64,000 nucleotides of DNA. Origin: Thermoanaerobaculia bacterium (GTDB lineage Bacteria; Acidobacteriota; Thermoanaerobaculia; Gp7-AA8). Positions within the stretch are counted from its first letter, which is position 1, and each line of letters opens with the position of its first letter. Below the pieces are notes generated by a model. That model did not search any database, was not told where the DNA came from, and saw only the letters and a list, made by a program, of their open reading frames with translations. Shown here piece after piece: positions 19,732-38,145 of the stretch. The stretch spans positions 264,187 through 328,186 of the forward strand of contig DASQJY010000028.1 of the NCBI GenBank assembly GCA_035630815.1. Direction: 5' to 3'. The translations under genes were made by a program, and so were the position numbers.

Positions 19732-19738
19732 TTGTCTT

Positions 19739-19772: not shown

Positions 19773-19842
19773 GGAAGGTAGGGATTTTCGCCTCCGTGTC
19801 ACTCCCACCTCTAGAGAGGTTCAACGCTTCATGGAGGAGAAA

Positions 19843-20571: not shown

Positions 20572-20623
20572 TGGTTACTAGCACGAGTAATACCCAATAA
20601 GCCCCAACGCCGGAGGACCTACG

Positions 20624-21163: not shown

Positions 21164-21759
21164 TGGTCAGGCACTACACGCTTCCGGAAAATACGCGCGC
21201 GACCATTGCGCGACAGCTCGCTGAGCGGCTCACACCAGCCGCGCAGATTCTCGCAATGGACGGCGGCAGGATGGCGCTAGCAGAGGACTTCCCGATATCC
21301 ACCCTGCAGCTTGAGAGCGTCCGGAGCAGCCAGGATAACCTCGCGCATATGCTGCACCGAACAGAGTATTGGCATCACCAAGTTCGGCACGGTGAGGTGG
21401 CGAGGGAATTCGCCACATCCACGCCAATTGGGCCCCTGGAATCGGACTGGCGAGTAGAAGGTGTATTCACGTCTGACATCGCTTCGCAATTAGATAGCGT
21501 GATCCTGTGGGTTGACGAGGCGGTGAAGGACGACGGCCTAGCCGAACTGTTGTATGCGCCGGCATACGGTCTCGTGGCGCTCTGGTGGCGTCCGGAGGCA
21601 GGAAACGACGTCGCGGTAGTTGTCGTCGATATGCCCGAAGTTTTTACGCATCTAGCCTATCGGCACGTCTATTCCGGAAGGGAGTTCTTGGAGAGGCTTC
21701 GGCAGGAACCATTCATTCAAGGCACGCCCGAAGAGTCTCCCATCGGAAGTAGCGACTGA
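21163..21759 (+). CDS. hypothetical protein translationally coupled to the peptidase
   Basis: The ATG overlaps the upstream TAA (TAATG). ~198 aa, no recognisable motif. Confidence 0.5.
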   Translation: MVRHYTLPENTRATIARQLAERLTPAAQILAMDGGRMALAEDFPISTLQLESVRSSQDNLAHMLHRTEYWHHQVRHGEVAREFATSTPIGPLESDWRVEGVFTSDIASQLDSVILWVDEAVKDDGLAELLYAPAYGLVALWWRPEAGNDVAVVVVDMPEVFTHLAYRHVYSGREFLERLRQEPFIQGTPEESPIGSSD

Positions 21760-21890
21760 TGAAGGACGGACCCGACAGCATGCACGCTTGGCGTGAATCT
21801 CTCGCGGCTTCTTTGCGGAACGCCGGAGAACGATTCGAACGATTCGGCGTGTTGCCACAGCACCTCAAGGATGAATAGTTTGCCAATGGC

Positions 21891-23465
21891 CTACCATGCC
21901 GTGCTATCCCCGAGCGGCGGCTCGGTGAGCTTGACGTCCCCTAGAAAGAATTTCGCAACATCAGTCCATAAACTCCACCACTCGTGAGACTGGCCACGAT
22001 CGGCAACGATCGCGGCCGGTTTCAGCACATCTACTTGCGGTTCCTGGCCCGCGGCTTCGATTTGGAACCCAAGTGCGCGGAGGAAGAAGCGCTTCTCCGC
22101 GACCGGCAGCGTCTCGAACAACGAATCCGCATCCACAAGCGACGCGAGGAACGTTCGCGCGTTTTGGAACTTTTCTGCGAGGTCGCCCTCCGCGTGCGCG
22201 GCGGTCAGCATCGCCTCGGCGCGGCGGCCGGCGAGCTCGCGGCGTTTGAAGTCGTAGTCATCCTGCGTGATCGTCGCGGCGAGGAGCAGATCGAGGAGCC
22301 GTGATTGCTGCGCGTCGAGCTGCTTAATCTCCGTCTCTGCGCGTGCCTTCTGTTGGGCAAGCTGCGTCTGCCCTCGTTGCTCGGCGTCCTGCAGGATGCG
22401 AAACGCCATCGCGTACTCTTCCTCCGTGATCGCGAGACGATGCAGCACCGCGGCAACATCGCGCAGGAGCGCCGTCTCGGAGAGCCGTGGCTGCGTACAG
22501 CGGCGGCGCATCTTGTTGCTGCACACGTAGTACGTGTACGGCTTGCCCGACTTCGACTTCGTGATCGTGCCGGTGAGCGTCCGCCCGCAACCACGACAGC
22601 GAACGAGCCCGCCGAGCGTGAACAGGTGCCGCTGCGGACGGTCCGTGCTCTTTCTGCGCTGGCCGAGCGCGCGCTGCACCCGCTCGAACAGTTCGTCGGA
22701 GACGAGCGGCTCGTGGGTGCCGGGATAGACCTCCCCCTTCACGACGAGGAGGCCACGGTAGAACGGGTTCGTGAGGATGTGGACGACGGTGGTGTGCGAA
22801 AGGCCGAGCTTCGTCGAGTTCACGCGGCGCTGCGGCTTCCGCACCTTCCACTCGTCGCGCGTGATGCGGGCGAGCGCGTCGATGCTGTACGCGCCCGTCG
22901 CGGCGAGGGCGAAGAGTTGCCGCACGTGAGGCGCCATCTCTTCATCAACAGCGATGACCGCGCGGTCGGCGCTCAGACGCACGTTCTTGTAGCCGAACGG
23001 CGCAGTCCACGCCCATTCGCCGCGCCGCAGCTTCTCCTCCATCCCGCGGCGGATGTTCTTCGAGAGATCCTTTGAATACTTGGCGGAGAAGCCAAGGAGG
23101 ATGCCGAGCATCAGCTCCGAATCGGCGTCGTCCGCGTACACGCCGTCCGAGGTGATGATCCGTTTGAGGCGCTTTGATTCGAGCGCGAAGAGAACGGCGC
23201 CGGCATCGGCGGCGTTTCGCGCGAGGCGGTCTGCTTTCCAGCAGATGATCGTGTCCACCTCCCCCTTCCCGACGGCCGCCATCATCCGCCCGAACTCCAC
23301 GCGTCCGGGCTTCTTCGCCGACTTCGCCTCCTTGAAGATCAGCGGCTCACGAATGCCGTTCTTCGCGCACGTCTCCACGGCCCAGTGAAGCTGGGCGTCG
23401 AGGCTCAGTGCTTGACGGTCGTCGGACTCGCTCGACTTGCGAGCGTAGATGGCGGTACGGGGCAT
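21891..23465 (-). CDS. large serine recombinase (resolvase domain + recombinase domain + zinc ribbon + coiled coil)
   Basis: N-terminus TAIYARKSSESDDRQALSLDAQ (catalytic Ser context), DTIICWKADRLARN. CRGCGRTLTG...YYVCSNK zinc-ribbon region. Long helical C-terminus. Confidence 0.92.
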   Translation of the reverse strand: MPRTAIYARKSSESDDRQALSLDAQLHWAVETCAKNGIREPLIFKEAKSAKKPGRVEFGRMMAAVGKGEVDTIICWKADRLARNAADAGAVLFALESKRLKRIITSDGVYADDADSELMLGILLGFSAKYSKDLSKNIRRGMEEKLRRGEWAWTAPFGYKNVRLSADRAVIAVDEEMAPHVRQLFALAATGAYSIDALARITRDEWKVRKPQRRVNSTKLGLSHTTVVHILTNPFYRGLLVVKGEVYPGTHEPLVSDELFERVQRALGQRRKSTDRPQRHLFTLGGLVRCRGCGRTLTGTITKSKSGKPYTYYVCSNKMRRRCTQPRLSETALLRDVAAVLHRLAITEEEYAMAFRILQDAEQRGQTQLAQQKARAETEIKQLDAQQSRLLDLLLAATITQDDYDFKRRELAGRRAEAMLTAAHAEGDLAEKFQNARTFLASLVDADSLFETLPVAEKRFFLRALGFQIEAAGQEPQVDVLKPAAIVADRGQSHEWWSLWTDVAKFFLGDVKLTEPPLGDSTAW

Positions 23466-23964
23466 GGATGGACGGGAGGATCAGGAGGTGCCGGATCAGC
23501 GACGCGGTCGAGCGCGCGGAGCGCAATGGCGAACGCCCAGAGGAGTTGCCGGTACTGGCGCAGTTCCTCGGCCGTTCCCTCCCTCCCCAATCGCTTCGCC
23601 AGGAGCGCCGGGAGCTCGCGCTCGATGTCGGGGGAGAAGGTATCCGGAGCCGCGATCGGCAGGGGTGCGTCAGGGAGCATGGGCTGCGCGGCAAGGACGG
23701 CGGCGCACCCGAGGCCGGATCATACGCTTCGAGCCGCGACACGCAAGAGTGATCCGTGCCTGCGGGGCACGTGTGCTACGCGAACGCACCGCGTCAGGAT
23801 GCGATCGCGGTGTGCCCCCGCGGCACATCCAGCGCAGGACGCATCGCACAGAGCGCGCACCCCATCGGATGATGCGGTCGAGCCATCTCCGATGAACACC
23901 GCACTGCACACACATCGACTGCACGTTCTCACGGTAGACGCTCGGGCGTCTGGTTCGGAGCGCC

Positions 23965-25287
23965 GTGCGGCATCTTGGAGAACTCCTGTCCGACTTCGCC
24001 CGCGCGTTCTGCCATCGAAGCGTCGGATCGCGCACGGACAAATCCTCTCCAATCGACGCACGTCGTCTCCGTCAGGCGGAGGGCCGCGCCGTAGGCTTTG
24101 CAGTGCAGCACGCCGGTCGAATCGCTTCCTTCCTCCCACCCATGTCTCCTGATCCTCGCGAACGTGATCTTGGGGTCTCGCCCCCTCCCCCTGTCTTCGC
24201 CGCGCTGCCAGTGTCGAGCGAAGCACCGGCAGACAGTAATAGTCACGCCGAAGCGACGGGCGAAAGCGATGGTGCCAAGCGGTGGAAGACACCCGCGGGG
24301 GTGTCTCGCCGGGAAGACAGGCGGAAAGACACCCCTCCCTCTGGTGTCTTCGCTACCCCTTCCTCCAATGGGCTGTCTGTCTTCGACGGTCCCGAGGTGC
24401 CCCGTGACCGCGAAGCCATCCTCCACCTCGTGCGCATGCGGGCGCTCTCCTACGACCAGCTTGCGCGGCTCACGTATCACGGCGTGCATAAGACGGTCGC
24501 GCAACGTCGGATGCGCAAGCTCCGCGCATCGGGTTGGGTTCACGTGTGGGATAAGCCGGTGGCCGCCGGAAGTGGCCCCCGCTATGCCTATCCGACACAG
24601 CAGGCGTTTCGATGGGGTCACGAGCGGCTGCACGGCGTCCTCGAGACGCCGATCGGCCGTCTGGTCGAGCACATGTTGCCGAAAAACCCGCGGCAGCCGT
24701 GGGACTTCAAAACCGGGGTGACGCCCACGTTCCTCGCGCATACCGAGGAGGTCAATGACCTCGCGATCGCCTGGCGCCGCGCGCTCCCGGCCGAAGTCGT
24801 GTGGATGTCCACGTGGGATGTGCCGTTCCCGGAGCACATCGCATGGCGGCAGATGCCGCAGCCGGACTACGTGCTCGTGTTCCGACGTGACGGGCGGCTC
24901 CACGTCGTCTTCGGGGAGCACGACCGATCGACCGAGCCGGTGCACGAGCTCGCGCGGAAGCTCGGAGTGTACCGCGCGTGGTTCGAGACACCGGACGTGC
25001 TCGCGGAGACGCTCGGGTTCTCCACGTTCACGCTGCTCCTCACCGTCACAGGGGACGCGCCGATGCGTCGGCTCATCCGGCTCTCGGAAACCGCACGAGA
25101 TAGCGGCGCCGCGGCCTTTACGCGGCTCTCCCTTTTCCCGTGGGCCGTCGCGCAGCCGCACGGTGCAGCGTGGTTCCACCCCGACGAACCGCCCACGTCC
25201 ACACATCCTGACCTGAGCGGACATCCCGCCGCGCGTCGGCTCGCCCTTCCCGCCATCACATCCCTTCCCCCGCAGAACCATGCTTGA
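23965..25287 (+). CDS. Replication-relaxation (PF13814-like) winged-helix protein, copy A; true start uncertain (candidates ATG 24142, GTG 24397)
   Basis: PRDREAILHLVRMRALSYDQLARLTYHGVHKTVAQRRMRKLRASGWVHVW...YAYPTQQA parallels copy B (31669-32370) and the family pattern. The antisense ORF 23929-25281 is R/G/P-rich. Confidence 0.65.
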   Translation: MRHLGELLSDFARAFCHRSVGSRTDKSSPIDARRLRQAEGRAVGFAVQHAGRIASFLPPMSPDPRERDLGVSPPPPVFAALPVSSEAPADSNSHAEATGESDGAKRWKTPAGVSRREDRRKDTPPSGVFATPSSNGLSVFDGPEVPRDREAILHLVRMRALSYDQLARLTYHGVHKTVAQRRMRKLRASGWVHVWDKPVAAGSGPRYAYPTQQAFRWGHERLHGVLETPIGRLVEHMLPKNPRQPWDFKTGVTPTFLAHTEEVNDLAIAWRRALPAEVVWMSTWDVPFPEHIAWRQMPQPDYVLVFRRDGRLHVVFGEHDRSTEPVHELARKLGVYRAWFETPDVLAETLGFSTFTLLLTVTGDAPMRRLIRLSETARDSGAAAFTRLSLFPWAVAQPHGAAWFHPDEPPTSTHPDLSGHPAARRLALPAITSLPPQNHA

Positions 25288-25492
25288 CGAACTCTATTGC
25301 GGCTTCTGCGACCGCCTCATGCCGCGCGGCCTCGACGCCTGTCCGTCGTGTGGCGCCCCGGTTTTCGAGCTTGCGATGGACCCGCTCGATGCGGAGCTCC
25401 CACCGCCGCGGTTCGACGTAGCCGCTGAACTCCTCGATCCTGACGCACCGCAGCCCACCACAGTAGATAGTGGTGTGTCCGCTCACCCTTGA
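25280..25492 (+). CDS. small zinc-ribbon protein
   Basis: YCGFCDRLMPRGLDACPSCGAPVF. Its ATG overlaps the end of the upstream gene. Confidence 0.45.
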   Translation: MLDELYCGFCDRLMPRGLDACPSCGAPVFELAMDPLDAELPPPRFDVAAELLDPDAPQPTTVDSGVSAHP

Positions 25493-25660
25493 CCACATGA
25501 CCCGAGGATGTCGTAAACATCGACGACACGAGAGCCGCGGTGTCTCGCTCCGCACCAGCCCCGCAGGGCTTGCGCAACGGTCGGAATGGCGTTCAATGGA
25601 GGGAGAACCTACATCCACCCTACACGCTCCGGCGCTTCAGTTGTCCCCTCTGGCCAGCCT

Positions 25661-26380
25661 ATGAACCGCCCCGCCCTCCTCATCCGCGAAGTCATGCGGC
25701 TCACGCAGGAGCGCAACTGGACGCCTACCGTCGTTGCGCAGCAGCTCGGCGTGGATGAGGAGACGTGGCGGCACATTCGCGCCGGGCGAAGTCCCGTCTC
25801 CATGAATCTCCTCCTCGCGATCGGGCGGGTCTTCGGCGGCGAACCCGCGATCCAGTCGGCGATCGTCCACTACACGGTGATCGATGGGCAGAAGGAACAT
25901 CCGCCGAAAGCGGCTGCATGCACGGCGACTGCGGAGCTGCCGCACGCGCAGCGCTGGCGAATCGATCGATGGCTCGCGACGCTCCGAACGACCGACCTGC
26001 CACCGCGAGGCCTCTTCCTCACCGGGCCGGCGCCGCTCCTCACGCGCGGCCTTCGCGCTGTCGTCGCGAGCTGCGCTGCGCGAGGAGTGCGAACGCACAC
26101 CATCCGCGGGAGCGACCAGCTTGCGGGCTCGCATGCGCGCGCCGCGGTCGAGGCCGAACTGCTCCTCGTGGAGCGCGTGGATTTCGCGTCGGATGCGGTG
26201 AAGAAGCTCCTCGACGAGCGGTCCGACACCCTGCGTCCGTTCGTCGTGACGAGCATCGTCGATCGTGAAGAGATCGCGGACGCGTATCTCCGCCGCCTCC
26301 TTCGCACGTGGACACGCCTCATTCGCCTCCGGCCGGACGCCGGAACCACCCACCCCACACGCCATGCTCGACGCGCCTGA
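25661..26380 (+). CDS. HTH (XRE-like) domain protein
   Basis: LIREVMRLTQERNWTPTVVAQQLGVDEETWRHIRAGRSPVSMNLLLAIGRVF from the ATG at 25661. Confidence 0.5.
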   Translation: MNRPALLIREVMRLTQERNWTPTVVAQQLGVDEETWRHIRAGRSPVSMNLLLAIGRVFGGEPAIQSAIVHYTVIDGQKEHPPKAAACTATAELPHAQRWRIDRWLATLRTTDLPPRGLFLTGPAPLLTRGLRAVVASCAARGVRTHTIRGSDQLAGSHARAAVEAELLLVERVDFASDAVKKLLDERSDTLRPFVVTSIVDREEIADAYLRRLLRTWTRLIRLRPDAGTTHPTRHARRA

Positions 26381-27098
26381 TCCAACACGGCTCTTCTTCC
26401 TCGGGCCACGGAACGCGCCGGTCGAAGAACTCTCGATCGTGCCGGTGGACTTCGCGCACCTCTTCTCGCTCATTCCGCACGTCGGACGCAATGCCGCGGT
26501 CCTGTACGTCGCGATCCGGGCCATGCGGCAGCGCGCAGGCGTCACTTCGTTTGCGATCAATGACCTCGCATGGATGCTCCGCGCGCGTCCGATCCGGATT
26601 CGCCTGTGGATGCAACGGCTGGCGCGGGAAGGGCTGCTCGTCTACCACATGACGAACGGCAGCTTCTCGGACGTGCTCCTGCTGGAAGTCGCGGCACGTC
26701 CGGACGCCGGCCGCACGCACGACCTCCCGACGCACTGGGTGCCGCACGTGCTGCCGCGCCTCAATCGGACGCGGTTCCTCGTCTACTTGTGGGTGCGGAG
26801 CCATGAGTGGGGCGGCCACACGGCCGAGGTTCGGGAGGAGCGGCTCGCGCGCGAGCTCGCCCTGCATCCGGTCCGCGCGCGCTTTCACCTGTGGCGCCTG
26901 CGGCACGCCGGGCTCGTCGTCTGGAGCCGGAAGCGGCGCGAGTTCACCGTTCGCGATCCGGCGCCGCTCTCGATCCCGCAGCAGGCCGCACTCCGACTGC
27001 GGGAACTGCGCGTTATCCCGTGGGTCGCGTTTCAGGTCGTACTCGCGATCGCAATGGGCGTCGCGCTCACGCTCTTCATCCTTCACCTTCGCCAGTAA
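26364..27098 (+). CDS. double winged-helix protein with C-terminal TM anchor
   Basis: FAINDLAWMLRARPIRIRLWMQRLAREGLLVYH and LARELALHPVRARFHLWRLRHAGLVVW. C-terminal WVAFQVVLAIAMGVALTLFILHL. Confidence 0.5.
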   Translation: MLDAPDPTRLFFLGPRNAPVEELSIVPVDFAHLFSLIPHVGRNAAVLYVAIRAMRQRAGVTSFAINDLAWMLRARPIRIRLWMQRLAREGLLVYHMTNGSFSDVLLLEVAARPDAGRTHDLPTHWVPHVLPRLNRTRFLVYLWVRSHEWGGHTAEVREERLARELALHPVRARFHLWRLRHAGLVVWSRKRREFTVRDPAPLSIPQQAALRLRELRVIPWVAFQVVLAIAMGVALTLFILHLRQ

Positions 27099-28495
27099 TG
27101 ACCACCACAAAACGCATCCTTCGCTTCCGCTATGAGACCGCCGCCGCGCACGCCGCGAAGGCGTGGGAGCAGTTCTACCTCGATAACGACGGCTTCTATC
27201 ACGAGCAGCGCGAGCGCGCCGGTGCGGCGCGCGGTGCCGTCTTCGCGACGTACCGCCTCGCCAACAACCGGCAGATGCCGGTCTGGCTGACGCCGGAGGA
27301 TCTCGACCGCCATGCCATCGTTCTCGGCGCGACCGGCACCGGCAAGTCGTCGCTCCTCGAACGCATGGCGCGCCTCTGCTTCGACACGAAGCGCGGCATC
27401 GCGCTCCTCGACCCGCACGGCGATCTCTACGCGCGTACGGCAGCGTGGGCGAAGCATGCCGGCGTCAGTGACCTCACGCTCCTCGACTTCACCGAGCCCG
27501 ACCAGCTCCCCGGCTGGAACCCCTTGAAGCCCATCCCCAGCGTCGATCCCGGCCGCCAGGTCGATCTCCTCATCGGCATCTTTAAACGCCTCTACAGCGA
27601 CGAAGACGCGAAGAGCTGGAGCTATGGCGTGAAGGCCGAGGAGATCCTTCGCTACAGCCTCCGCGCCTGCATCGAGAGCGAAACGCCGGCGACGATCGAC
27701 ACCATGCGATCGTTCCTCCTCATCCCGGCGCTCCGCTCATCGCTCTTGCAGACGACTTCCGCGGAAGTGCGGTACTACTTCCACGAGCGCTTCTCGAAAC
27801 GCGAGGAGATGCACGTCGCAGCAGTGCTCAACAAGCTGGAGCCCTTCCTCGGCTCGATGGCGGTGCAGCGCTTCCTCGGCAAGCCCACGAGCACGGTCGA
27901 TCCACTCGCGATTATGGATCGTGGCGGCACGCTCCTCGTGAATCTCGCGAAGGGCTACCTCGGACCGACCGCCGACATCCTCGGCCGCCTCCTCCTCAAC
28001 GGACTGGAACTCGGCGCGCTTCGCCGCGAAGCGGTCGCGCCGGAGGAGCGTCTACCATACACACTCATCATCGACGAGGCACACACGTTCGCCGGCAGTG
28101 ACGGCGCGCTCGACGTACTCCTCACGGCCGCGCGGAAGTACCGAGTGTCGCTCGTCCTCGCGGCGCAAGCGCTCGCCCTCTTTCCAAGTCGGTTCGAGAC
28201 GCTCGCCCTCGGTAACGCCGGCCATCACTTCTTCTTCCGGCTCGCGCAGCAGGAAGCGCAGAAGGTCGCGCCCGGTCTCTTCGAGCCGCAGGGCAACGTG
28301 CCGCGGGTCGCCGTCCGTGCCTACGACAAGATCGCGGACCCATACCTCACACCGGCCGAGGAGATGCGGGAGCGGGCGCGCGAACTCGCCGATCTGCCGA
28401 TCGGCGCGTGCTACTGGGCGATCAAAGGAAAGGCGTACCGCGGGCGGCACATCCAAGTGCACTCGCCCGAAACGCTCACAACGCCGCTGGCATGA
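27098..28495 (+). CDS. HerA/FtsK-superfamily ATPase, type-IV-coupling-protein (TraD/VirD4)-like, copy A
   Basis: The ATG at 27098 overlaps the upstream TAA. HAIVLGATGTGKSSLLERM (Walker A), ALLDPHGDLY, YTLIIDEAHTFAG (Walker B), VSLVLAAQ. Confidence 0.85.
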   Translation: MTTTKRILRFRYETAAAHAAKAWEQFYLDNDGFYHEQRERAGAARGAVFATYRLANNRQMPVWLTPEDLDRHAIVLGATGTGKSSLLERMARLCFDTKRGIALLDPHGDLYARTAAWAKHAGVSDLTLLDFTEPDQLPGWNPLKPIPSVDPGRQVDLLIGIFKRLYSDEDAKSWSYGVKAEEILRYSLRACIESETPATIDTMRSFLLIPALRSSLLQTTSAEVRYYFHERFSKREEMHVAAVLNKLEPFLGSMAVQRFLGKPTSTVDPLAIMDRGGTLLVNLAKGYLGPTADILGRLLLNGLELGALRREAVAPEERLPYTLIIDEAHTFAGSDGALDVLLTAARKYRVSLVLAAQALALFPSRFETLALGNAGHHFFFRLAQQEAQKVAPGLFEPQGNVPRVAVRAYDKIADPYLTPAEEMRERARELADLPIGACYWAIKGKAYRGRHIQVHSPETLTTPLA

Positions 28496-28557
28496 TCTGA
28501 CCAGTAAAACACCAGCGTCAATCACGCCCCAAGCGCAGATGAACCGTAAAACCGTCC

Positions 28558-29400
28558 TTAAACTACACTTACCCCAATCCAAACCGCAACAAAAACCACG
28601 CAAATTATTATCGCCGCAATATCCTCTGGACTCAGATCGGCCGGAAGATCATGCACACTTGCAACCTGCAAAAAACCGCGCTCTATAAGTATGGCATTCG
28701 TGTCACGCGCGAGCTCATCGAACATCATAAGTATGGAATCAACAAAGTGCAGGCCAAATACGCGCCCACCATCCTTGCGACCACGGGCCGTCCTCACAAG
28801 AGCCGCCTTGCCGCGAGCACGCCACCAAGCTTCGCCCACGCGACGATCGATTGTGCTTGACACAACGTAATATGTCACAGCGACCGTGACATACGCGTAT
28901 TGTAGGAACGCCCAACGCGACAAATACTTCCGAATCCACAAAACGTCTGACGGGCAGACACGCAACGTACCCCGCGCAGCAGCCAAAAATAGCAGCAACA
29001 CAAGTGCAACATACGCTGCCACGCCGCTTGTTAATGCACCACTCGCGCCGATCCTTTCCGCAAGCCAATCTTCGATTGAGAACATGCCTAGGCGATTCGC
29101 TGCCACGACGAATCCACTGACGGCCAACCCGATGACCCACCGCGCAGTCGGGCCTCGTCGGTCTGCCCGGAAGTCGAGGCTCTGACACGTCAAGATAATA
29201 AGCAACGAGAGTAAGAGAAAGTCCGCCGAGAACGTCGAATCATAAAATCGAAGCAGCGTTGCGACAGAAGCGACCCCGAGTGGAAGAAAAACAAACAAGA
29301 ACTTCACCAGCGGATGGGACAGGTGACCTCTTCCTTCATATTGGAAGTTGCCGCCGAGCAACTCGTTGACGAGCTGTTGGGTTAATGCGTTGTTCGGCAT
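28558..29400 (-). CDS. EcfT/CbiQ-like transmembrane (T) component candidate
   Basis: Multi-TM protein. Two Ala-Arg-Gly motifs (LAAARGT, RTARGRK) and C-terminal ELARDTNAILIERGF resemble EcfT coupling helices. The ATG at 29400 lies 11 nt after the upstream stop codon. Confidence 0.55.
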   Translation of the reverse strand: MPNNALTQQLVNELLGGNFQYEGRGHLSHPLVKFLFVFLPLGVASVATLLRFYDSTFSADFLLLSLLIILTCQSLDFRADRRGPTARWVIGLAVSGFVVAANRLGMFSIEDWLAERIGASGALTSGVAAYVALVLLLFLAAARGTLRVCPSDVLWIRKYLSRWAFLQYAYVTVAVTYYVVSSTIDRRVGEAWWRARGKAALVRTARGRKDGGRVFGLHFVDSILMMFDELARDTNAILIERGFLQVASVHDLPADLSPEDIAAIIICVVFVAVWIGVSVV

Positions 29401-29411
29401 TACTTCTTCCC

Positions 29412-30875
29412 TCACCCCAGTAGCGTAGCCAACGTATCGGCCGGACGGTTGCTTGTTAATACAACCGCGCTCCACGTCCTATTTTTGACGTACTCATTGA
29501 GCTTTGCAGCGATGCGTGCTCGCAGTTGCGGCCCGAGATTAGCGAACGGCTCGTCAAGAATTGCAAGAACGCATTGTGATGGCAGAAGAGCAAACGCCAC
29601 AATCTTGCGCTGTCCATATGACAGAGAATCTAAAGCAATGTCCAAGGGGACGTCGAGTTCACGAAGCCAAGCATACTTGCCATCTAGCTCCGCTGGATCA
29701 CACACCGAAGCTAGCTCGGACCGAGCTGACGATTGTCCGGACAACAGAAGCTCCGGCTCAGCCGGAAGGTAGGCCAACCGCTTACTTGCCGCAAGTCCCC
29801 GGATTGAAGTGCGAACGGAAAGCACACCCGATAACTCTGCGTTGGGCGCGCGTCCGTAGACGCAAAGGCCCGATCTGCCGAACCATGGATTGAATCGAAA
29901 ATGGCCGGCAAGCGTTCGTGCGAACAAAGTCTTGCCCGCACCGTTGTCGCCGTACACGACATTCACACCTTCCGCAATAGAGTCGACACGAGCCAGACTG
30001 ATCGATGTATCGCCTGCACGATACTCAAGTTCAATGTCAGAGAATATCTTTCGTCCACTACCTGATATGCAGCGGACGCTATGACTAGGAAGGTCCTGAA
30101 AGCTATCCGTGTCAGTGAGGGCTTTAACGTAACTATCTTTGTCCACCCCAAAAGCTGTGAGGTCATCAAGTCGGCCGCTAATATCGTCCACGGCCGCCCC
30201 GGTTGGTCGCGGGCGAACGTCGATTCGCTCCCGCGAACTGGACACCTCGTGATCGATTGCGCCGGACACAAAGACCGCGTCAGCGGGGTGCATGCTCGCG
30301 ACCACATACTTGCCCTTGCAGTGTCGCTCGATCAGCCTAACGGTGCGTTCGGCGTACTTCTTGCTCAGTCGAGCAAAGGGTTCATCCATCAGAATTAGAT
30401 CGGCCTCTGCTAACAGCGCGACGGCCACGCCAATCATTTGCTGCTGACCGGCGCTGAGCGACGCACCGGGGCGCGGAAGTGCGCTGGGAGCCCAATCTAG
30501 TTCATCCTGTAGGAGTGATCCAACCGAATCGGCAAAGTCCTGCTCGTCCAAACCCGAATCGGCGTACATCACCCGAAATTCTTCCGACAAGATACTACCG
30601 ACAAGATTTGCCTTGGGCGATTGGCGGACGTTGATAACGCGCTGAATGTCCGCCGCCTGTAGTACGCGTACTGACTCGCGGTCGAGGGACCGCAGTCCTG
30701 CAAACGATGGGTGGCGGTAAAACAAGGAAAGCGCCGAGAGGAGTGTCGTCTTGCCGCTCGCGTTCAGACCCCATAATACAGAATAACGATCGCAATGCAG
30801 TTCGCCCGTCAGGACTCGCGTGCTGCCTCCATGAAACTCCAGTCGCGCCTGATCAAACGCGAGATGGAGAGTCAT
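29412..30875 (-). CDS. duplicated ABC ATPase (two nucleotide-binding domains, ECF A-A' style)
   Basis: NBD1: GLNASGKTTLLSAL, LSAGQQQMIGVAVAL, LILMDEPFARL. NBD2: GDNGAGKTLFARTL, LSYGQRKIVAFAL, LAILDEPFANL. Confidence 0.85.
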   Translation of the reverse strand: MTLHLAFDQARLEFHGGSTRVLTGELHCDRYSVLWGLNASGKTTLLSALSLFYRHPSFAGLRSLDRESVRVLQAADIQRVINVRQSPKANLVGSILSEEFRVMYADSGLDEQDFADSVGSLLQDELDWAPSALPRPGASLSAGQQQMIGVAVALLAEADLILMDEPFARLSKKYAERTVRLIERHCKGKYVVASMHPADAVFVSGAIDHEVSSSRERIDVRPRPTGAAVDDISGRLDDLTAFGVDKDSYVKALTDTDSFQDLPSHSVRCISGSGRKIFSDIELEYRAGDTSISLARVDSIAEGVNVVYGDNGAGKTLFARTLAGHFRFNPWFGRSGLCVYGRAPNAELSGVLSVRTSIRGLAASKRLAYLPAEPELLLSGQSSARSELASVCDPAELDGKYAWLRELDVPLDIALDSLSYGQRKIVAFALLPSQCVLAILDEPFANLGPQLRARIAAKLNEYVKNRTWSAVVLTSNRPADTLATLLG

Positions 30876-31507
30876 GCCTCCTCCCGTAAGTATGACTGCA
30901 CGCGCCTTACAAACTTATTGTCCTCTGGCACAATTTTGAAGACGAAGGACGCGATTATCGCTGAGATTCCAAAATGGAACGGCGCTGCGACAGCGACTGC
31001 GGTCAGAATTACTTTAGCGCTGCCTGGAACCATTATTACAAATATGAGCCAAAAAATTGCGAAGCCAACAAGAGTTATCCAGAGATGGCCCAAGATGAGA
31101 CGTCCCTGCGTGATCTTCTTCCTAGTTGCAAGGTCGAATACAGCTCCTGCGATAATATAAAGAGGTTTTAAAATAGTGGGTGGTCCGAGATAGGTTGTGA
31201 AGATGGCGATCGTACCCGCGACTGCATACATGCTTGCAACCGACCACCTACGTCGAACAACAACTTTGTTGAGCGTTATGAGGAGTGCTACCCACGGGCT
31301 TGCGGCGGTGATGTTCATGAGCGGGATCGGAAACGGTTCCAACGCGCTGCCACCGAGAGCCAACGCCGTCCCGAAGATGACGCTCCAAATGATGTATTGG
31401 ATTCGCCCCGGAGGAACTGCAACCGCTGCCGGCCGCTGAAGCCGCGTACGAACTCGAGATTCGGGTGTTTCAGTGCCGTTCTGGCCATGCGACATCTTCG
31501 ACTCCAT
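30872..31507 (-). CDS. polytopic membrane protein, candidate ECF substrate-capture (S) component
   Basis: ~6 predicted hydrophobic helices. 4-nt overlap with the downstream ATPase gene. The assignment rests on context only. Confidence 0.5.
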   Translation of the reverse strand: MESKMSHGQNGTETPESRVRTRLQRPAAVAVPPGRIQYIIWSVIFGTALALGGSALEPFPIPLMNITAASPWVALLITLNKVVVRRRWSVASMYAVAGTIAIFTTYLGPPTILKPLYIIAGAVFDLATRKKITQGRLILGHLWITLVGFAIFWLIFVIMVPGSAKVILTAVAVAAPFHFGISAIIASFVFKIVPEDNKFVRRVQSYLREEA

Positions 31508-31533
31508 TCGTCTTGGAAAACGGTTACAGATCG

Positions 31534-31666
31534 CTGAGTACCGCTCCTCGGAATGCTACGCCTTCACGACACATTTACGCAACACGCACTCCACGGCAGC
31601 GGCGACGAACACTGGAGATCCACCCGCGTCTCACCGTCCATTAGATTTCTTTCCGAAGGTACTCAG
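31534..31666 (-). ncRNA. candidate structured 5' leader (riboswitch-like closing stem) upstream of the ECF cassette
   Basis: On the minus strand, cugaguacc (31666-31658) pairs perfectly with gguacucag (31542-31534). It is extended by cuucgg/ccgagg and encloses ~110 nt. No known riboswitch core was recognised. Confidence 0.25.
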
Positions 31667-31668
31667 AT

Positions 31669-32370
31669 TCAGAGCGCCGATAGCGTTTCGACCGCCAACG
31701 GGAAGTCACTCAACGCAGGTACAAGCGCGTCGCGCAGAGAGTCCCGACGTCGCGCCGTCGCGGTGAGGAGCAGGATCGCGGCGGGCGCAGGTCCTATCCA
31801 TTCAGTGAGGAAGCCGATGAGTTCCAGGGTCTTGGGCACGAGTACGGTCTTCACTGACTCGCCGCCCAAATCCACCTCGATTGCTAGCGCGGCACCCGGA
31901 TCATCGGCCTGCGGCTGCCAGAGGCAAAGGAGATCCGGCCAAACGGTGAGTTTCCCCGCGAACAATCGCTGAACCATCCATGCGGGTAGTAACTCGTCCG
32001 GTGCAGGCGTGCGGCGGCGCATCGCGAGCGCCGCGTTCACGATCTCCACCGTGTGCGCGAAGTCCTTCGCCGGAACGGGGCCGCCCGCCGGGAAGAGGTC
32101 GGACGCGGGTGCGAAGCTGCCATCCCCGAGGAAGTCGCGGCCTTTCTTCGTGAGCCAGCAGACCTGGATGCCGTTGCCGTGCAGCCGCTCGACGCCGAGA
32201 TAGCCGCGCTCCGTCGAGCGGTCGAAGAAGCGGGTGACGATCGTTTCCGATACGTCAGGGAAGAGCCAGCCTTTGAGCTGCTGGCGGGTCATCATGCGGA
32301 AGCGGCCGACGAGCGCGTACGCCTCCAGATCGCGCGGGAGGATACGATGTTTCTTTGTCGTCGTCGCCAT
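31669..32370 (-). CDS. Replication-relaxation (PF13814-like) winged-helix protein, copy B
   Basis: From the ATG at 32370: MATTTKKHRILPRDLEAYALVGRFRMMTRQQLKGWLFPDVSETIVTRFFDRSTERGYLGVERL...WLTKKGRDFL. Its start shares one base with the upstream TAA stop. Confidence 0.7.
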   Translation of the reverse strand: MATTTKKHRILPRDLEAYALVGRFRMMTRQQLKGWLFPDVSETIVTRFFDRSTERGYLGVERLHGNGIQVCWLTKKGRDFLGDGSFAPASDLFPAGGPVPAKDFAHTVEIVNAALAMRRRTPAPDELLPAWMVQRLFAGKLTVWPDLLCLWQPQADDPGAALAIEVDLGGESVKTVLVPKTLELIGFLTEWIGPAPAAILLLTATARRRDSLRDALVPALSDFPLAVETLSAL

Positions 32371-32663
32371 TACAGCACCTTGATTGTCACTGAGCAGTAG
32401 TCGCAGTCGAAGCTGCGCGACTGCTCGCCGCAGGATGTACAGCGGAGGCGGCTGCCGTACTCCGTCGCCCGGCATTTCGGGCACGTGGCGAGGAGGTCCA
32501 AGGCGTTCGTCGCTCCGCAATGCGGGCAGTCGATGTAGCCCTTCCGCATGAGCGCCGCCCCACGGGAGAGCTTCATGACTTTGCATGCGAAGACAATGAC
32601 GTACACCGGGCTTGCGAGCAGGTAGAGCAGAGCAAGGCCGATCCATCGAAGTGTCTTATCCAC
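32370..32663 (-). CDS. membrane-anchored multi-zinc-ribbon protein
   Basis: The GTG at 32663 overlaps the ATPase stop by 8 nt. TM LRWIGLALLYLLASPVYVIVFA, then CPHCG...CPKC...CTSCG...CDYC. Confidence 0.5.
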   Translation of the reverse strand: MDKTLRWIGLALLYLLASPVYVIVFACKVMKLSRGAALMRKGYIDCPHCGATNALDLLATCPKCRATEYGSRLRCTSCGEQSRSFDCDYCSVTIKVL

Positions 32664-34278
32664 GATCGCCCTCCTCGCCCTCAGATTTGCCCCGTGCACG
32701 ATCCAGCAGCGCGAAGAGGTCCGAAATACCGCGCGTCGCGGTCCCACCGCTTTGCGGCCTTTTTACGGCCCCAGGCACGATCGACGGCGAGATGCCGCTG
32801 TGGCTCGCGAAGAGATCGGATTCCCATGTCGCGATCAGCTTCTCCGCGTCCTTCACCCGGACCATCGAGCGGCGGGCGATGTGCTGCTCAAACGTTTCGG
32901 TCAACACCTCGCGCGGGTAGCGCGTCGTCGGATCATCGAGGTCGCGCGTACGGAAACGGACTGCGGGGAGTCCCTTCTTCACAAGCACGGCCTGCTGCGT
33001 TGGCAGCTTCGCCATGTCGCGCACGAACGTCTGCCGCTGCTCGGATTCGCTCTTCCCCGGCGTCCGGCTGACGTGCGGGAACAGCCACAGCGCCTCGTCC
33101 TTGCCGCACTCGAACGCAAGCAGCCATTTCGAGTTCAGTCTCAACGCTTCGCATGTCTCACGGGGAATCGCATTCGCCGGGTCTTGCGAGACGGTCACGA
33201 TGGAAAGCCCTTTCCAGCGGAGCGTGCGCGATGCTTCGAGCAGGAAGTCCGCGACCGCGGGCTGCTTCACGATGACGCTGACTTCCTCGACGAGCACCAT
33301 CTCGGGAGTGATCTCCTCGCGCACGTTGGCGTCGTTCAGCACGTCGATCATGCGGTTGATCGCCATTGCCTTCGCGAGTGCCGGGGAGCGCTGCGGCGTC
33401 GGGCCGAAGTTGCCGAGGAAATCGGTCGCGCGATCATCCAGCGGCGCGAGCGCCTGCACCATCGAAGGGGATAGCCCGAAGCTGATCCGCGCCGGCGCCG
33501 ACGACAGGAGGATGTCGAACTGCCGCACGATCGCCGTGCGCGTCTGCGTCGGCAGAGTCGTGTCGATGTGCTCGATCGAGTCGCGGAGCCGCGCATCGGT
33601 GATCCTTGGCAAGATCAGGCGCACGCGAAACTCGGCGTCGAGGAAGAAGGAGCGGACGAACTTGACCGTGATGCCGCACTGCATATTGATCGTGGCGGAG
33701 TACAGGAGGAAGACGCCGTACTCCATGAGGTCGGAGTAGTCGTGGCCGCTCATGTGGCGTGTCGCCGCTGCGCGCAGGCTCGCGAGAAGCGACGGCGACA
33801 TCCCCTTTGGGACCGCGAAGAGGTTGAACCGGGTCAGCGCGTCGGCCGTCACGTCGAAGACCCGGAAGCGCGCAGCGAACGCTTCGCGCTCGGGGTCAGG
33901 GAGATCAAGGAAGTCGGCGGCGATGTGAAGCGACTTGAGGAGGTAGGTTTCGCCCTTTGGGTCAATGAGCTGAAGCCTCCGGGTGCCACTCGCCGACCAG
34001 CCATTCGTAATGATGACGAGGCCGTAGCTCTTGCCCGCGCCGGAGGAGCCCCAGACCATACCGTGCCGCCCGACTTCACGCGCGGCGATGCGGATCTCTT
34101 CGCCACTCGTGATCGTGCCGAGGACGAAGCTCTCGTCACCATCCAGCGCGGCGAGGGTCGTGCGCGCGTCGTCTTCCGAGGAGCCGCGCATCTCGGCGGC
34201 CATCGCGGCGGTGTTCTTGCGCGCGCGGGCGTAGGACTCCTTGCGATTGCCGAAGAACCAATCCGAGCCGGGCGGCAT
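32656..34278 (-). CDS. HerA/FtsK-superfamily ATPase, T4CP/VirB4-like, copy B
   Basis: The ATG at 34278 forms an ATGA overlap. HGMVWGSSGAGKSYGLVI (Walker A), QLIDPKGETY, EMVLVEEVSVIV (Walker-B-like), LSIVTVSQ. Same motif order as copy A. Confidence 0.8.
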   Translation of the reverse strand: MPPGSDWFFGNRKESYARARKNTAAMAAEMRGSSEDDARTTLAALDGDESFVLGTITSGEEIRIAAREVGRHGMVWGSSGAGKSYGLVIITNGWSASGTRRLQLIDPKGETYLLKSLHIAADFLDLPDPEREAFAARFRVFDVTADALTRFNLFAVPKGMSPSLLASLRAAATRHMSGHDYSDLMEYGVFLLYSATINMQCGITVKFVRSFFLDAEFRVRLILPRITDARLRDSIEHIDTTLPTQTRTAIVRQFDILLSSAPARISFGLSPSMVQALAPLDDRATDFLGNFGPTPQRSPALAKAMAINRMIDVLNDANVREEITPEMVLVEEVSVIVKQPAVADFLLEASRTLRWKGLSIVTVSQDPANAIPRETCEALRLNSKWLLAFECGKDEALWLFPHVSRTPGKSESEQRQTFVRDMAKLPTQQAVLVKKGLPAVRFRTRDLDDPTTRYPREVLTETFEQHIARRSMVRVKDAEKLIATWESDLFASHSGISPSIVPGAVKRPQSGGTATRGISDLFALLDRARGKSEGEEGDRG

Positions 34279-34730
34279 CAGTCGTCGTCCTCGTCGTCGG
34301 AGTCGAACGGGAACCGCCCCCGACTGCGACGTGCGTTCGGATTCATGGTGAAGGGCCGCTTTCCGCCGCCCCGGTTGAAGAAGCTCTCCCACGGATCGCG
34401 CGGCTTCGCCTTCGACGCGAAGCGGCTCCGCAGTTTCAGGACGCCGTAGGCGATGAGCGCCGCGATGACGACGGCTGCGATGCAGCCGAGGCCGGACAGG
34501 AGGTCGTGCGCGGGCGACAGAGCGACAGGACCGGGAGGTGCTGCTCCGGCCTCGGTACTCGATATCCCATAGAACAGTCCAACAATGAGCGAGGGTAGGA
34601 ACGCGAGAATGAAGCAAACGCCCGCCCAGCGGCGGAGCATCGCACCAGCATCGGTTTTCGAGAGCGACAGGCTGAGAACGAAGAGCGCGCAGGCCGCCGC
34701 GATGAGAAAGCGAATGAGTTCTGCGAACAC
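34278..34730 (-). CDS. membrane protein with acidic C-terminal tail
   Basis: 3-4 hydrophobic helices. C-terminus ...RFPFDSDDEDDD. Confidence 0.5.
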   Translation of the reverse strand: MFAELIRFLIAAACALFVLSLSLSKTDAGAMLRRWAGVCFILAFLPSLIVGLFYGISSTEAGAAPPGPVALSPAHDLLSGLGCIAAVVIAALIAYGVLKLRSRFASKAKPRDPWESFFNRGGGKRPFTMNPNARRSRGRFPFDSDDEDDD

Positions 34731-34795: not shown

Positions 34796-35257
34796 TTACT
34801 CCGCGTTGTGCGGGCCGTCGTTGTTCTTGTTCAGGTACGGGAAGTGGCGGCGCAGAAGCTCCGCAACTTCGTTGTCGAACGGCCCGGCTTCGACGTACGT
34901 GTAGTGGGCGTTGTGCTTCCGCCAGTGATGCACGTACGGGATGAAGACCTGCTGGAGCTTCTTCAGGCGGCGGCGGACGAGGCGGTGGTTCGCTTCGAGC
35001 TGGTTCGACAGCGCGGAGCGCTTCGAGGCGAAGTAGCAGTACGTCTTGCTCGCGTGCGCGAGCCTGCCGCCGAACAGCACGAGCACGTGCGCCGCAAAGC
35101 TGATGATGGCGAGGATCACGAGCATGAGGAACGGCACCGAGTCGTCGGCGACGACCTGCACCGACACGGCGGTAACGACGGCGGTGAGCGGCATCACGAG
35201 CGCGACGAGCACGCCGAGCGCGATCCAGAGGTAGTAGGCGGTGCGATTACCAGCCAT
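34796..35257 (-). CDS. membrane protein, function unknown
   Basis: Two N-terminal TM helices (YYLWIALGVLVALVMPLTAVV, FLMLVILAIISFAAHVLVLF) plus a basic cytoplasmic tail. Confidence 0.5.
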   Translation of the reverse strand: MAGNRTAYYLWIALGVLVALVMPLTAVVTAVSVQVVADDSVPFLMLVILAIISFAAHVLVLFGGRLAHASKTYCYFASKRSALSNQLEANHRLVRRRLKKLQQVFIPYVHHWRKHNAHYTYVEAGPFDNEVAELLRRHFPYLNKNNDGPHNAE

Positions 35258-35699
35258 AGCTCGGAACCTCCTCCTGCTCGCGCGCGTCGCGCGCTTCGAC
35301 GATCTTCAGCGAGATCAGTACCTCGATCCCGAGGAAGAAGAGCGGAATCCCGTACTTCGCGATGAGCACGAGCATCCAGTTGTTCGTGAGGAGACTCGCG
35401 ACGTACTCGGCGGTCGCGCCGAAGAGCAGCACGTCGATGCCATAGACGCAGCCGAGGGCGAAGAGGAACACGGCGTACTTCATGACGTCGCTGCTATGGA
35501 CCTTGAGGAGATCCGGGTTGCGTTCTTCGAGCCGCTTGATGGCGTTCGCGGTCGCGACGACCTTCCCCTCGGCGTCGAGCACGTCGTGGCCTTTCCAGTT
35601 GATCTTCTTCGCGGTGGCGATGAGCCTCTGACGGCTCGCCTCCTCGTGGGCGGCGGAGCCGCCCGTCGTGATGTTGGGTGCAGCGGTGTTAGCGGGCAT
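35247..35699 (-). CDS. membrane protein, function unknown
   Basis: The ATG at 35699 overlaps the end of the VWA gene. Soluble N-terminal half, then TM helices (YAVFLFALGCVYGIDVLLF, MLVLIAKYGIPLFFLGIEVLISL). Confidence 0.45.
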   Translation of the reverse strand: MPANTAAPNITTGGSAAHEEASRQRLIATAKKINWKGHDVLDAEGKVVATANAIKRLEERNPDLLKVHSSDVMKYAVFLFALGCVYGIDVLLFGATAEYVASLLTNNWMLVLIAKYGIPLFFLGIEVLISLKIVEARDAREQEEVPSYGW

Positions 35700-36477
35700 T
35701 GGGTTCTCCGTTGATGGTGATGTAGCGGACGGCGGCGGCGGTGGACTCGAAGCGGAGCGGACGCGGGGTGAGCTTGTCGAGGATGCCGAGCGCGCCGATA
35801 CCATTGACGATCACGACCTGCCCATTTGACCGGAGCGCCGGCGTCGAGGCTGCGGTCGCGTTGTGATAGCCATCCGTAATGACGACGATCGCCGTCTGCG
35901 CCGGACCGCGGAAGGGCGAGGGCTCGGCCATCATGAGATCCCCGCGCGCGATCGCGCCGAGAATGTCGGTGCGCGGCGCGATTGGCGGCGCGGCGAGGAG
36001 CGGCGTGATCGCGGCGATGAACGCGTTGATGCGCGCGTTCGCGTCCGCCTCCCACGCGCGACGTTTCGCCTCGTACTTCTTGCGCTCCGCCTCCTCGCGC
36101 TTGCGCAAGTTCGCGTTGGCGAAGACGTTGCCAGTCGCCTCAGCTGGGAACGTCGGCGGCTCGGGCGGCTCAGGCACGTAGCAGCGGATGAGCGGCATGT
36201 CCGAGTCATCCGTGATGCGCCCGAAGCCGATCTCCCCACCGCTGACGCGCAGGCGGTCGAAGAGCGGCGTGAGGTCGTCGATCGACGCGCTGATGCGCGC
36301 CGCGTCGCGCGAGGCCGTGCCGTCGAGGAGCGCCGCCGCGCGGAGCGGCGCTGGCACCGCGATCGTCTGGACGACCGCGACGGCCTTCGGCGGCGGCCCC
36401 GCATGCTGCTGCGGCGACACCGACCCGATAGTGATGGCCGCGGCGAGCGCCGCGGCCGTGATTGCGATGAGTTTCAT
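35689..36477 (-). CDS. secreted von Willebrand factor A (VWA)-like protein
   Basis: Signal-like MKLIAITAAALAAAITIGS. MIDAS-like LLDGTASRD, TDILGAI, VVITDGYHN. A Lys/Glu-rich insert splits the domain. Confidence 0.6.
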   Translation of the reverse strand: MKLIAITAAALAAAITIGSVSPQQHAGPPPKAVAVVQTIAVPAPLRAAALLDGTASRDAARISASIDDLTPLFDRLRVSGGEIGFGRITDDSDMPLIRCYVPEPPEPPTFPAEATGNVFANANLRKREEAERKKYEAKRRAWEADANARINAFIAAITPLLAAPPIAPRTDILGAIARGDLMMAEPSPFRGPAQTAIVVITDGYHNATAASTPALRSNGQVVIVNGIGALGILDKLTPRPLRFESTAAAVRYITINGEPNAR

Positions 36478-37785: not shown

Positions 37786-37980
37786 TCACACGCGCGTCGG
37801 CGTCTTCGCGGCGCGCTCGGCGAGGAACTGCTCGACTTCGCTGAGGGGATACGTCACGTGCGTCGGCGAGACCTGAATCCAGCCTTTCGGACCTTTGCCC
37901 ATGCAGCGCCACTTCGCGAGCGTGGCCGTTTTGATCCCGATGAGACGTGCGACATGAGGGGCGGAAATGCGATCTTCCAT
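37786..37980 (-). CDS. AlpA/excisionase-type HTH protein
   Basis: 64 aa. ISAPHVARLIGIKTATLAKWRCMGKGP...YPLSEVEQFL is typical of HTH_17/AlpA. Immediately upstream of int. Confidence 0.7.
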   Translation of the reverse strand: MEDRISAPHVARLIGIKTATLAKWRCMGKGPKGWIQVSPTHVTYPLSEVEQFLAERAAKTPTRV

Positions 37981-38145
37981 GTTGGATCTCCTTTGCGGGA
38001 ACCACGGTGCAGGACGAACCGCGGGCGTCGGCTGAATGTGTCGAAACGACGCGGAGATCGGCGGGAAGTAGACACCCGATAGACACCACCATAGACACTC
38101 CTGGGTTTTGGAGTCGCCTGATCGCGTCTAAGTGCCTGATTCTAT

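Follow-up and report, generated by a model that had tools for sequence, protein, structure and literature searches.

A 64-kb window (the whole stretch analyzed) of contig DASQJY010000028.1 from a Thermoanaerobaculia bacterium contains two gene modules, A and B, each encoding a Replication-relaxation (Replic_Relax) protein, a zinc ribbon and a P-loop ATPase. Genes were called by third-position GC bias (GC3) in DNA of ~65% GC, and related loci, recognized by comparison with the window, carry the labels L001-L099. From 21.9 to 38.2 kb the order was serine recombinase, module A (+), cargo (-), module B (-), integrase, Xis-like protein and tRNA-Gly(CCC). This region is probably a composite integrative mobilisable island in an Acidobacteriota (Thermoanaerobaculia-like) chromosome, carrying two modules of a MOBC-type relaxase plus a coupling protein and relying on a helper type IV secretion system (T4SS) encoded elsewhere.

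Module A (23965-28495, +) was read as five plus-strand genes. RelA, a Replic_Relax open reading frame (ORF; PF13814) and candidate MOBC-type relaxase (23965-25287), is followed by ZnA, a 70-aa zinc ribbon with a CxxC...CPSCGAP motif (25280-25492), a helix-turn-helix (HTH) protein of the HTH_31 family (25586-26380; 26.9 bits, slightly below the cut-off of 27), a winged-helix protein with one C-terminal membrane helix (26265-27098; true start possibly ATG 26364) and ATPase A (465 aa; 27098-28495), a predicted VirD4/TrwB-type coupling-protein ATPase without a membrane domain. Module B (31669-34278, -) comprises ATPase B (540 aa; 32656-34278), which is divergent, coupling-protein-like and likewise without a membrane domain, ZnB (32370-32747), a double zinc ribbon with CxxC pairs and a membrane-anchoring helix at residues 36-54, and RelB, a minimal 234-aa Replic_Relax (MOBC-type) relaxase candidate matching PF13814 (31669-32373), all on the minus strand. 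The gene content and coordinates of both modules, given earlier by a first-pass annotation of the same DNA, were confirmed by ORFs and Pfam; the HTH_31 and winged-helix/membrane-helix genes had not been listed there. The modules had also been described as head-to-head around cargo. They converge instead, tail-to-tail, on a variable, lower-GC cargo segment between both stop codons (28496-31668). Long N-terminal ORF extensions of RelA (23965-24393), ATPase A (26807-27097), ATPase B (34279-34617) and RelB (32374-32646) were rejected as coding on GC3.

PF13814 was matched by RelA at 54.8 bits and by RelB at 30.7 bits (cut-off 25.3). It was also found in all 64 full-length RelA homologues, the 65th match being a 175-aa fragment without PF13814. 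Streptococcal PF13814 proteins are assigned to the MobC (MOBC) relaxase superfamily by CONJscan (PMC5357655). MOBC relaxases are akin to PD-(D/E)XK restriction endonucleases, and their prototype, TraX, has an N-terminal winged helix (PMC12857230). The AlphaFold2 model of RelA (predicted local distance difference test (pLDDT) score 92.7) had a winged helix at residues 11-75 and, after it, an alpha/beta domain resembling a nuclease, and its best PDB structure matches were FokI, PaqCI and the site-specific nickase N.BspD6I, with low template modelling scores (TM-scores) against these multi-domain targets. The conserved core of RelA begins near GTG 24394. Across 38 sequences H124, D166, E183, D185 and K197 (numbered on the translation of window 24370-25287) were invariant and E127 nearly so. 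RelB carries the motifs HTxEIVN (HTVEIVN), PD, ExD (EVD) and K (PK) in register with the RelA family, and its probable winged-helix-plus-nuclease architecture is taken from the RelB-RelA profile alignment. The H..VN, D, ExD and K motifs also aligned in a Streptomyces 'replication-relaxation family protein' (NZ_CP074103, L012).

By family membership and predicted fold, RelA and RelB are candidate MOBC-type relaxases that would nick DNA. The first-pass statement that neither module has a recognizable MOB relaxase thus does not hold, since PF13814 is a MOBC relaxase family and the RelA fold agrees with it. NCBIfam matched neither relaxase candidate, and a PDB sequence search with RelA gave no match. 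Because a ZnA-type ribbon is fused to the relaxase C-terminus in many homologues, ZnA is best regarded, on this comparison, as a C-terminal domain of the relaxase that has an ORF of its own here; in L001 the relaxase gene call includes the ribbon. At the ZnB position a gene of 96-98 aa was present in all B-type loci with gene calls (L001, L095-L099).

ATPase A matched T4SS-DNA_transf at 25.3 bits (cut-off 20.1) and, over no more than residues 54-119 around the P-loop, DUF87, the HerA central domain, at 32.1 bits (cut-off 23.2). TrwB_AAD_bind scored slightly below cut-off (18.2 against 20.5 bits); FtsK_SpoIIIE (13.4 bits, cut-off 24) and HerA_C were also below. Its Walker A and B motifs are GATGTGKS and LIIDEAH, and those of ATPase B are GSSGAGKS and VLVEE. 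The AlphaFold2 model of ATPase A (pLDDT 86.7) contains a helical insert at residues 151-272, as in coupling proteins. The top structure for this model was TrwB-deltaN70 (target-normalised TM-score 0.61-0.67), followed by Cag-beta and DotL, and the HerA and DndH structures scored below TrwB (query-normalised, 0.56-0.62 for TrwB vs 0.43-0.54 for HerA). The model thus identifies ATPase A as a predicted VirD4/TrwB-type coupling protein with an all-alpha insert and a TrwB-like fold. The earlier description of the system as possibly FtsK-like survives as membership of the FtsK/HerA/VirD4 superfamily; closer likeness to FtsK is not borne out by the FtsK_SpoIIIE score or by the ranking of TrwB, Cag-beta and DotL above HerA. 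Sequence searches were less discriminating. PDB sequence search did not separate HerA from TrwB for ATPase A, the ATPase B profile retrieved nothing useful from the PDB, and NCBIfam gave solely far-sub-threshold VirD4, TraD, HerA and CedD matches for the ATPase. In the plasmid collection all matches to ATPase A were below 34% identity, the best lying on a Sulfitobacter plasmid in an uninformative context. One ATPase B homologue (n=1) is named type IV secretory system conjugative DNA transfer family protein by NCBI.

Hydrophobic or membrane helices were sought in ATPases A and B and none was found, so that both lack the N-terminal transmembrane domain of VirD4. In both modules, a membrane protein is encoded directly before the ATPase, and its stop overlaps the ATPase start by one base. 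In module A this is the 26265-27098 protein, which has its membrane helix at residues 254-272 and is conserved in related loci. In module B it is a protein with three hydrophobic helices (34278-34730, -), and a gene of 119-149 aa precedes the ATPase likewise in L001 and L095-L099. From gene position and predicted helices, the former is a candidate membrane anchor of ATPase A, and the latter may serve ATPase B as a membrane partner. A recognized class of coupling proteins has no membrane domain and is paired with a membrane protein, exemplified by TraJ/TraI of pIP501 (PMC7431656), and ATPases A and B fit this subclass, not the canonical VirD4 type. The HTH_31 protein is conserved alongside the ATPase in L001 and in L003-L005; L013 and L015-L017 have a gene in that position as well. 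The protein is a candidate relaxosome accessory protein or regulator. Its C-terminal half contains a degenerate P-loop-like stretch (LFLTGPAPLLTRG) and a Walker-B-like LLLVERVD, and may be an inactivated AAA+-type domain.

A PD-(D/E)XK-type nuclease beside a HerA-like ATPase could also be an anti-phage system on a defence island. PADLOC matched mad8 to ATPase A (E=5.9e-16) and ATPase B (E=1.2e-9), weak HerA matches were obtained, HerA defence complexes were among the structural matches of ATPase A, and B-type modules are often neighboured by type I restriction-modification, NB-ARC/SLFN or ThiF/BilB-like sets. We nevertheless consider this reading highly improbable, as no Replic_Relax protein matched any PADLOC model, TrwB-type structures outranked HerA, PF13814 is a relaxase family, and the module is the constant core by the integrase whereas the defence-like genes are variable cargo. 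MADS-like matches were confined to mad8 on the ATPases and to mad3 on the cargo ATP-binding cassette (ABC) ATPase, a generic P-loop similarity. Membership of MADS was rejected; the mandatory MAD6 and MAD7 were not matched among the ten proteins scanned, and no methyltransferase family was seen in the region. A phage association was rejected as well, with a single remote IMG/VR match and the family essentially absent from viral contigs.

The two modules are related to each other, at a distance. ATPases A and B aligned pairwise with 23% identity over 415 aa (E=3e-8), and comparison of the two family profiles (95% probability, E=3.4e-8, 357 columns) ties ATPase B along its full length to the coupling-type A family. 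RelA and RelB shared 25% identity over 142 aa (E=5e-4), and comparison of their family profiles (E=1.2e-4) placed the motifs H..E, PD, ExD and K at matching positions. ZnA and ZnB were similar at the level of CxxC motifs and spacing only. Because identity is just 23-25%, modules A and B appear from these alignments to be ancient relatives, two old separate lineages and not a recent duplication. Of the paralogy proposed in the first-pass annotation, the homology was upheld for the ATPases and the Replic_Relax proteins and could not be extended to the zinc ribbons, and the implied duplication falls at this identity. The ATPase motif order noted there (GxxGxGKS, LxDPxGxxY, Walker B, SxVxxQ) can be followed in the pairwise ATPase alignment.

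A separate recombinase accompanies each of the two modules. On the A side this is a large serine recombinase (21891-23465, -), divergent from module A, in which Resolvase, Recombinase and Zn_ribbon_recom domains were all above cut-off; a homologue stands in the same position, beyond RelA, in L001, L004 and L005. On the B side the module extends through four small membrane or secreted proteins, the candidate ATPase B partner and three others (34796-35257, 35247-35804 and 35689-36477, all -; no Pfam match), to a tyrosine integrase (36492-37769, -; Phage_integrase 99.3 bits, plus Phage_int_SAM_3), a small Xis/AlpA-like HTH protein (37786-37980, -) and tRNA-Gly(CCC) (38146-38221, -; ARAGORN and Rfam). 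The tRNA was the sole hit of an Rfam scan of the window. It forms the right border of the island, and DNA similarity to L006 and L008 stops at 38221-38224. The three further small proteins have membrane helices and a signal-like N-terminus; they were 59-95% identical in L001, L004-L006 and L008-L010 and replaced in L095, and by this distribution seem specific to this B subfamily. A search for direct repeats across the window yielded only GC-rich chance families.

The region has the genes of an integrative mobilisable element (IME), namely its own integrases and relaxase-coupling-protein pairs, and mating-pore genes were not found. The arrangement recurs. Read from the tRNA, the composite order is xis, integrase, small membrane proteins, ATPase B, zinc ribbon, RelB and cargo, and after the cargo ATPase A, two HTH genes, a zinc ribbon (not always separate) and RelA. 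The same A-cargo-B composite was found in L001, L004, L005, L098 and L099 (at least five Thermoanaerobaculia/Acidobacteriota contigs). Relatives of ATPase A form more than 1,400 database clusters, and such source names as are given indicate Acidobacteriota/Thermoanaerobaculia metagenome-assembled genomes (MAGs); the ATPase B family has ~100, nearly all labelled 'hypothetical'. Among the genomes or MAGs that carry such islands are JAFAOU01, DATEOX01 and DASPHZ01. A tRNA-Gly(CCC) adjoins the elements in the window, L006 and L008, and the window integrase is 94-95% identical in the latter two. A tRNA-Pro(GGG) adjoins those in L004 and L010, with an integrase ~42% identical. The Xis-like protein is conserved in L004, L006 and L008, and its counterparts in L095, L098 and L099 matched HTH_17 or MerR_1, both weakly. 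The integrase end of the composite is mosaic. In MAG DASVRB01 (SMAG_U3224) two B-type elements, L006 and L009, were present (integrases 94% and 48% identical to that of the window), so B-type elements can coexist in one genome.

Both modules also occur alone. Solo A-type elements consist of a divergent relaxase, two HTH genes, the ATPase and a ~350-aa ORF, which in L003 is a tyrosine recombinase. Solo B-type cores consist of the membrane protein, ATPase, a 97-aa gene at the zinc-ribbon position and Replic_Relax, and were recovered down to 39% ATPase identity. In L008 module B is intact and module A decayed, ATPase A being just a remnant. From the solo forms and this decay it follows that the modules are able to exist apart, and a second account of the locus is that two independent neighbours meet here, a serine-recombinase element A having repeatedly inserted by or into a tRNA-targeting element B with no joint function. 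The recombinase on each side is compatible with this. Taken module by module, the account agrees with ours, and the sole point of difference is the unity of the composite. Set against it, six loci at different tRNA sites share the same relative order and orientation, and no conserved non-coding (att-like) junction was seen between A and B. Divergence is also congruent in the two modules, with the window as outgroup to L001, L004 and L005 in both. RelB, kept at 74-86% identity in six loci, is 83-85% identical between the window and these three and 90-95% among them; the corresponding values for RelA are 54-56% and 72-79%. This congruence suggests that the A-B pair has been inherited together, with module A evolving faster. 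Mere neighbourhood of two independent elements is possible but, on balance, doubtful, and the composite may move as one unit.

Candidate cis-acting sites were found toward either end of the composite. The stretch 23466-24393, which separates the serine recombinase from the relaxase core, is probably a non-coding leader, and the 143 codons of 23965-24393 have a GC3 of 0.54-0.68 vs 0.77-0.89 in the RelA core. The leader contains an imperfect palindrome (23772-23827) and, upstream of the RelA core, inverted AGACACC/GGTGTCT repeats (24280-24351). At the other end, between xis and the tRNA, three direct TAGACACC repeats lie at 38069-38099 and are conserved in L008. The window has nine AGACACC sites, of which the leader holds four and the two clusters together hold seven, and related loci have repeat clusters of their own at the RelA-leader position. 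From these sequence features the leader is a candidate origin of transfer (oriT) or operator, the 38069-38099 repeats are candidate integrase or Xis arm sites, and the same core motif at both composite ends may mean that one DNA-binding protein recognizes both.

In the mechanism we propose for a helper-dependent mobilisable island, the tyrosine integrase with Xis, and/or the serine recombinase, would excise the island. A relaxase would then bind the repeats of its own origin of transfer and nick one strand, and the coupling ATPase of the same module, anchored at the membrane through its partner, would hand the DNA to the T4SS of a co-resident conjugative element. We infer the dependence on a helper from the gene content and from known systems. 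MOBC1 plasmids, to which CloDF13 belongs, bring a coupling protein of their own yet require a helper T4SS (PMC7431656), and MPF_T conjugative T4SS are carried by Acidobacteria (PMC3548315). No T4SS genes were found in the 10-kb flanks of those related loci that were examined. A set of 64 flanking proteins taken from 7 of the loci included 13 integrases, and no T4SS family was among its 25 commonest.

The same lack of T4SS genes within 10 kb could be taken to mean that export is self-sufficient and T4SS-independent, carried out by the membrane partner, ATPase, zinc ribbon and nuclease, perhaps with the small membrane proteins of module B. The four-gene core is tightly conserved with overlapping genes down to 39% ATPase identity, and module B brings its three additional small membrane or secreted proteins. 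Acidobacteria are two-membraned, however, and no outer-membrane or periplasm-spanning component was recognizable; the extra membrane proteins are limited to one subfamily and replaced in L095; the ATPase fold is nearest to coupling proteins, which work with a T4SS; and CloDF13, with the same pair, needs a helper of a kind that Acidobacteria do carry. Export without a helper is accordingly judged very unlikely. We see equally little chance that the four-gene core is a minimal helper-free DNA exporter and that, in addition, the composite is a single element needing both modules. If that were true, one module would process or pump each end, or one would serve transfer and one maintenance, and the locus would represent a new architecture for mobile islands ferrying defence and other cargo.

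A maintenance role, in which the excised circle would depend on the Replic_Relax nuclease and the ATPase for replication, resolution or partition and not for transfer, was also weighed. The family name 'Replication-relaxation' is in keeping with it, some relaxases double as replication initiators (e.g., MOBT in ICEBs1; PMC5357655), and two modules per island could mean a division of labour. Inside either module, though, no replication-initiator, primase or partition family was matched, and the fold of the ATPase, all-alpha insert included, is that of a coupling protein and unlike ParA or a replicative helicase. A maintenance role is therefore judged very unlikely. The first-pass proposal of a DNA-transfer or segregation system accordingly keeps its first half, related transfer modules around cargo; segregation found no specific support.

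Several observations weigh against the reading as a helper-dependent mobilisable island. Neither VirB4 nor channel genes of a T4SS were detected in the window, where the earlier statement that no VirB/Tra apparatus is present holds. RelA had no BLAST-level (tblastn) match in 72,556 plasmids, and narrow family profiles missed CloDF13 MobC (the CloDF13 sequence used had fragmented ORFs); since there is no CloDF13 or plasmid sequence match, the MOBC assignment draws on Pfam, fold and literature. MOBC relaxases are themselves poorly understood, and a covalent DNA intermediate has never been observed for them (PMC12857230). ATPase B on its own reaches no Pfam cut-off, its DUF87 and HerA_C matches being sub-threshold. 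Nothing convincing was found in the window as a second copy of the tRNA-Gly 3' end (up to 3 mismatches), nor as an attachment (att) repeat among 11-16-nt k-mers shared by the window, L004, L006, L008 and L010. No att direct repeat of at least 11-12 nt was found that would define a left border or support excision.

The closest known systems resemble the modules in part. CloDF13 has a MOBC-type relaxase (MobC) and its own coupling ATPase (MobB), lacks a T4SS and needs a co-resident conjugative system (PMC7431656, PMC12857230). It is a plasmid of Enterobacteria whose MobB has an essential N-terminal membrane domain, whereas here the element is integrated, the ATPases have no membrane helices and stand beside a separate membrane protein, a zinc ribbon is on or by the relaxase, and there are two modules; narrow profiles detected no direct sequence similarity. 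Streptococcal IME class 8 resembles module A in its compact set of serine recombinase, PF13814 relaxase and VirD4-like ATPase (PMC5357655), but occurs in Bacillota, not Acidobacteriota, and the present locus has in addition two conserved HTH genes, a split coupling protein and a second module with a tyrosine integrase. Because a MOBC relaxase with its own coupling protein is found in both CloDF13 and this IME class, the triad belongs to a known conjugation family and is not the new relaxase-free system first supposed. In pIP501 a soluble coupling ATPase (TraJ) likewise accompanies a separately encoded membrane protein (TraI; PMC7431656); that plasmid is self-transmissible with a full Gram-positive T4SS. 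The proteins of the present modules are putative partners. The Streptomyces linear-plasmid cluster L012 (NZ_CP074103) has the gene order of module B, a coupling-type ATPase labelled 'ATP/GTP-binding protein' followed by the 'replication-relaxation family protein'. It differs in a second large ATP-binding protein and a peptidoglycan endopeptidase beside the pair, an ATPase of 829 aa and identity below 30%, and is probably a conjugation-like cluster with a full transfer apparatus. Translocases of the HerA/FtsK type (HerA-NurA, TcpA and Streptomyces TraB) share the P-loop superfamily, the DUF87/HerA_C matches and HerA structures as matches; ATPase A departs from them in its sub-cut-off FtsK_SpoIIIE score, TM-scores lower for HerA than for TrwB and a helical insert like that of coupling proteins.

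The cargo of the window consists of a polytopic membrane protein (28558-29475, -), a double ABC ATPase (29412-30875, -; Pfam ABC_tran and AAA_21) and a second polytopic membrane protein (30872-31507, -), in DNA of GC 0.55-0.58 vs ~0.65 elsewhere. DNA similarity among composites stops near the facing ends of the ATPase A and RelB genes, which places the cargo between them, and the cargo is different in every related locus. The ABC ATPase gave a PADLOC match to mad3 (E=1.9e-26) and AriA/AbiEii-type AAA_21 matches; the set could be a transporter or a defence-type ATPase. Cargo in L095 (13026-21593) includes M78/HTH plus DUF4411, an SLFN/NB-ARC protein and type I restriction-modification, that in L097 (6031-8700) ThiF and a BilB-like protein, and that in L099 (12768-17733) NUDIX, an adenylosuccinate-synthetase-like protein, HD and AAA_18. 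By their content, these related B-type elements seem to carry sets for phage defence or nucleotide metabolism.

Other parts of the window carry further features. Left of the serine recombinase, 12872-21800 looks like a second mobile block. Besides a tyrosine recombinase of only 241 aa (12872-13597, -) and a ParB-like protein of 611 aa (17661-19496), it encodes an HTH_26 protein, two peptidases, one S24/LexA-like and one C39-like (20624-21163), and a protein carrying the C-terminal domain of RNA polymerase alpha. The short tyrosine recombinase has homologues directly beyond ATPase A in L001 and on the downstream side of RelB in L009 and L010, and because of these positions it may mark the far end of B-type elements. 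The segment 2868-12703 (GC 0.55-0.60) encodes methionyl-tRNA synthetase, S-adenosylmethionine (SAM) synthetase, a Cys/Met pyridoxal-phosphate enzyme, a flavin-dependent (FAD) oxidoreductase, a B3_4-domain protein and a molybdopterin oxidoreductase fused to pentapeptide repeats, and could be a horizontally acquired methionine/SAM-related or self-resistance cluster. To the right of the island are a PIN-domain gene (43998-44462), RHS/YD-repeat proteins in 48838-55289 (overlapping long ORFs 48838-51492 and 50760-55289) and a 1019-aa TPR-CHAT protein (60338-63397); CHAT and teneurin-like RHS proteins also flank L013 and L096. In 44696-48787 long ORFs overlap on opposite strands (44696-47248, -; 46991-48787, +), and gene calls there are uncertain because both are coding-like in GC3 and without a Pfam match.

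Acidobacteriota are a dominant soil phylum. To our knowledge, conjugation and mobilisation are almost unstudied in this phylum, and we know of no description of such elements in it. What takes the loci collected here beyond the known type is the division of the coupling protein, the appended zinc ribbon, the recurrence of a convergent two-module composite and the use of at least two different tRNA sites, Gly and Pro. They define two families of small integrative elements that are abundant and for the most part lack annotation. As variations on CloDF13 and IMEs, the divided coupling protein and the paired modules can be tested and leave current models standing, and recognizing their relaxase-plus-coupling-protein modules would allow such islands to be annotated and the conjugative helpers that move them to be predicted.

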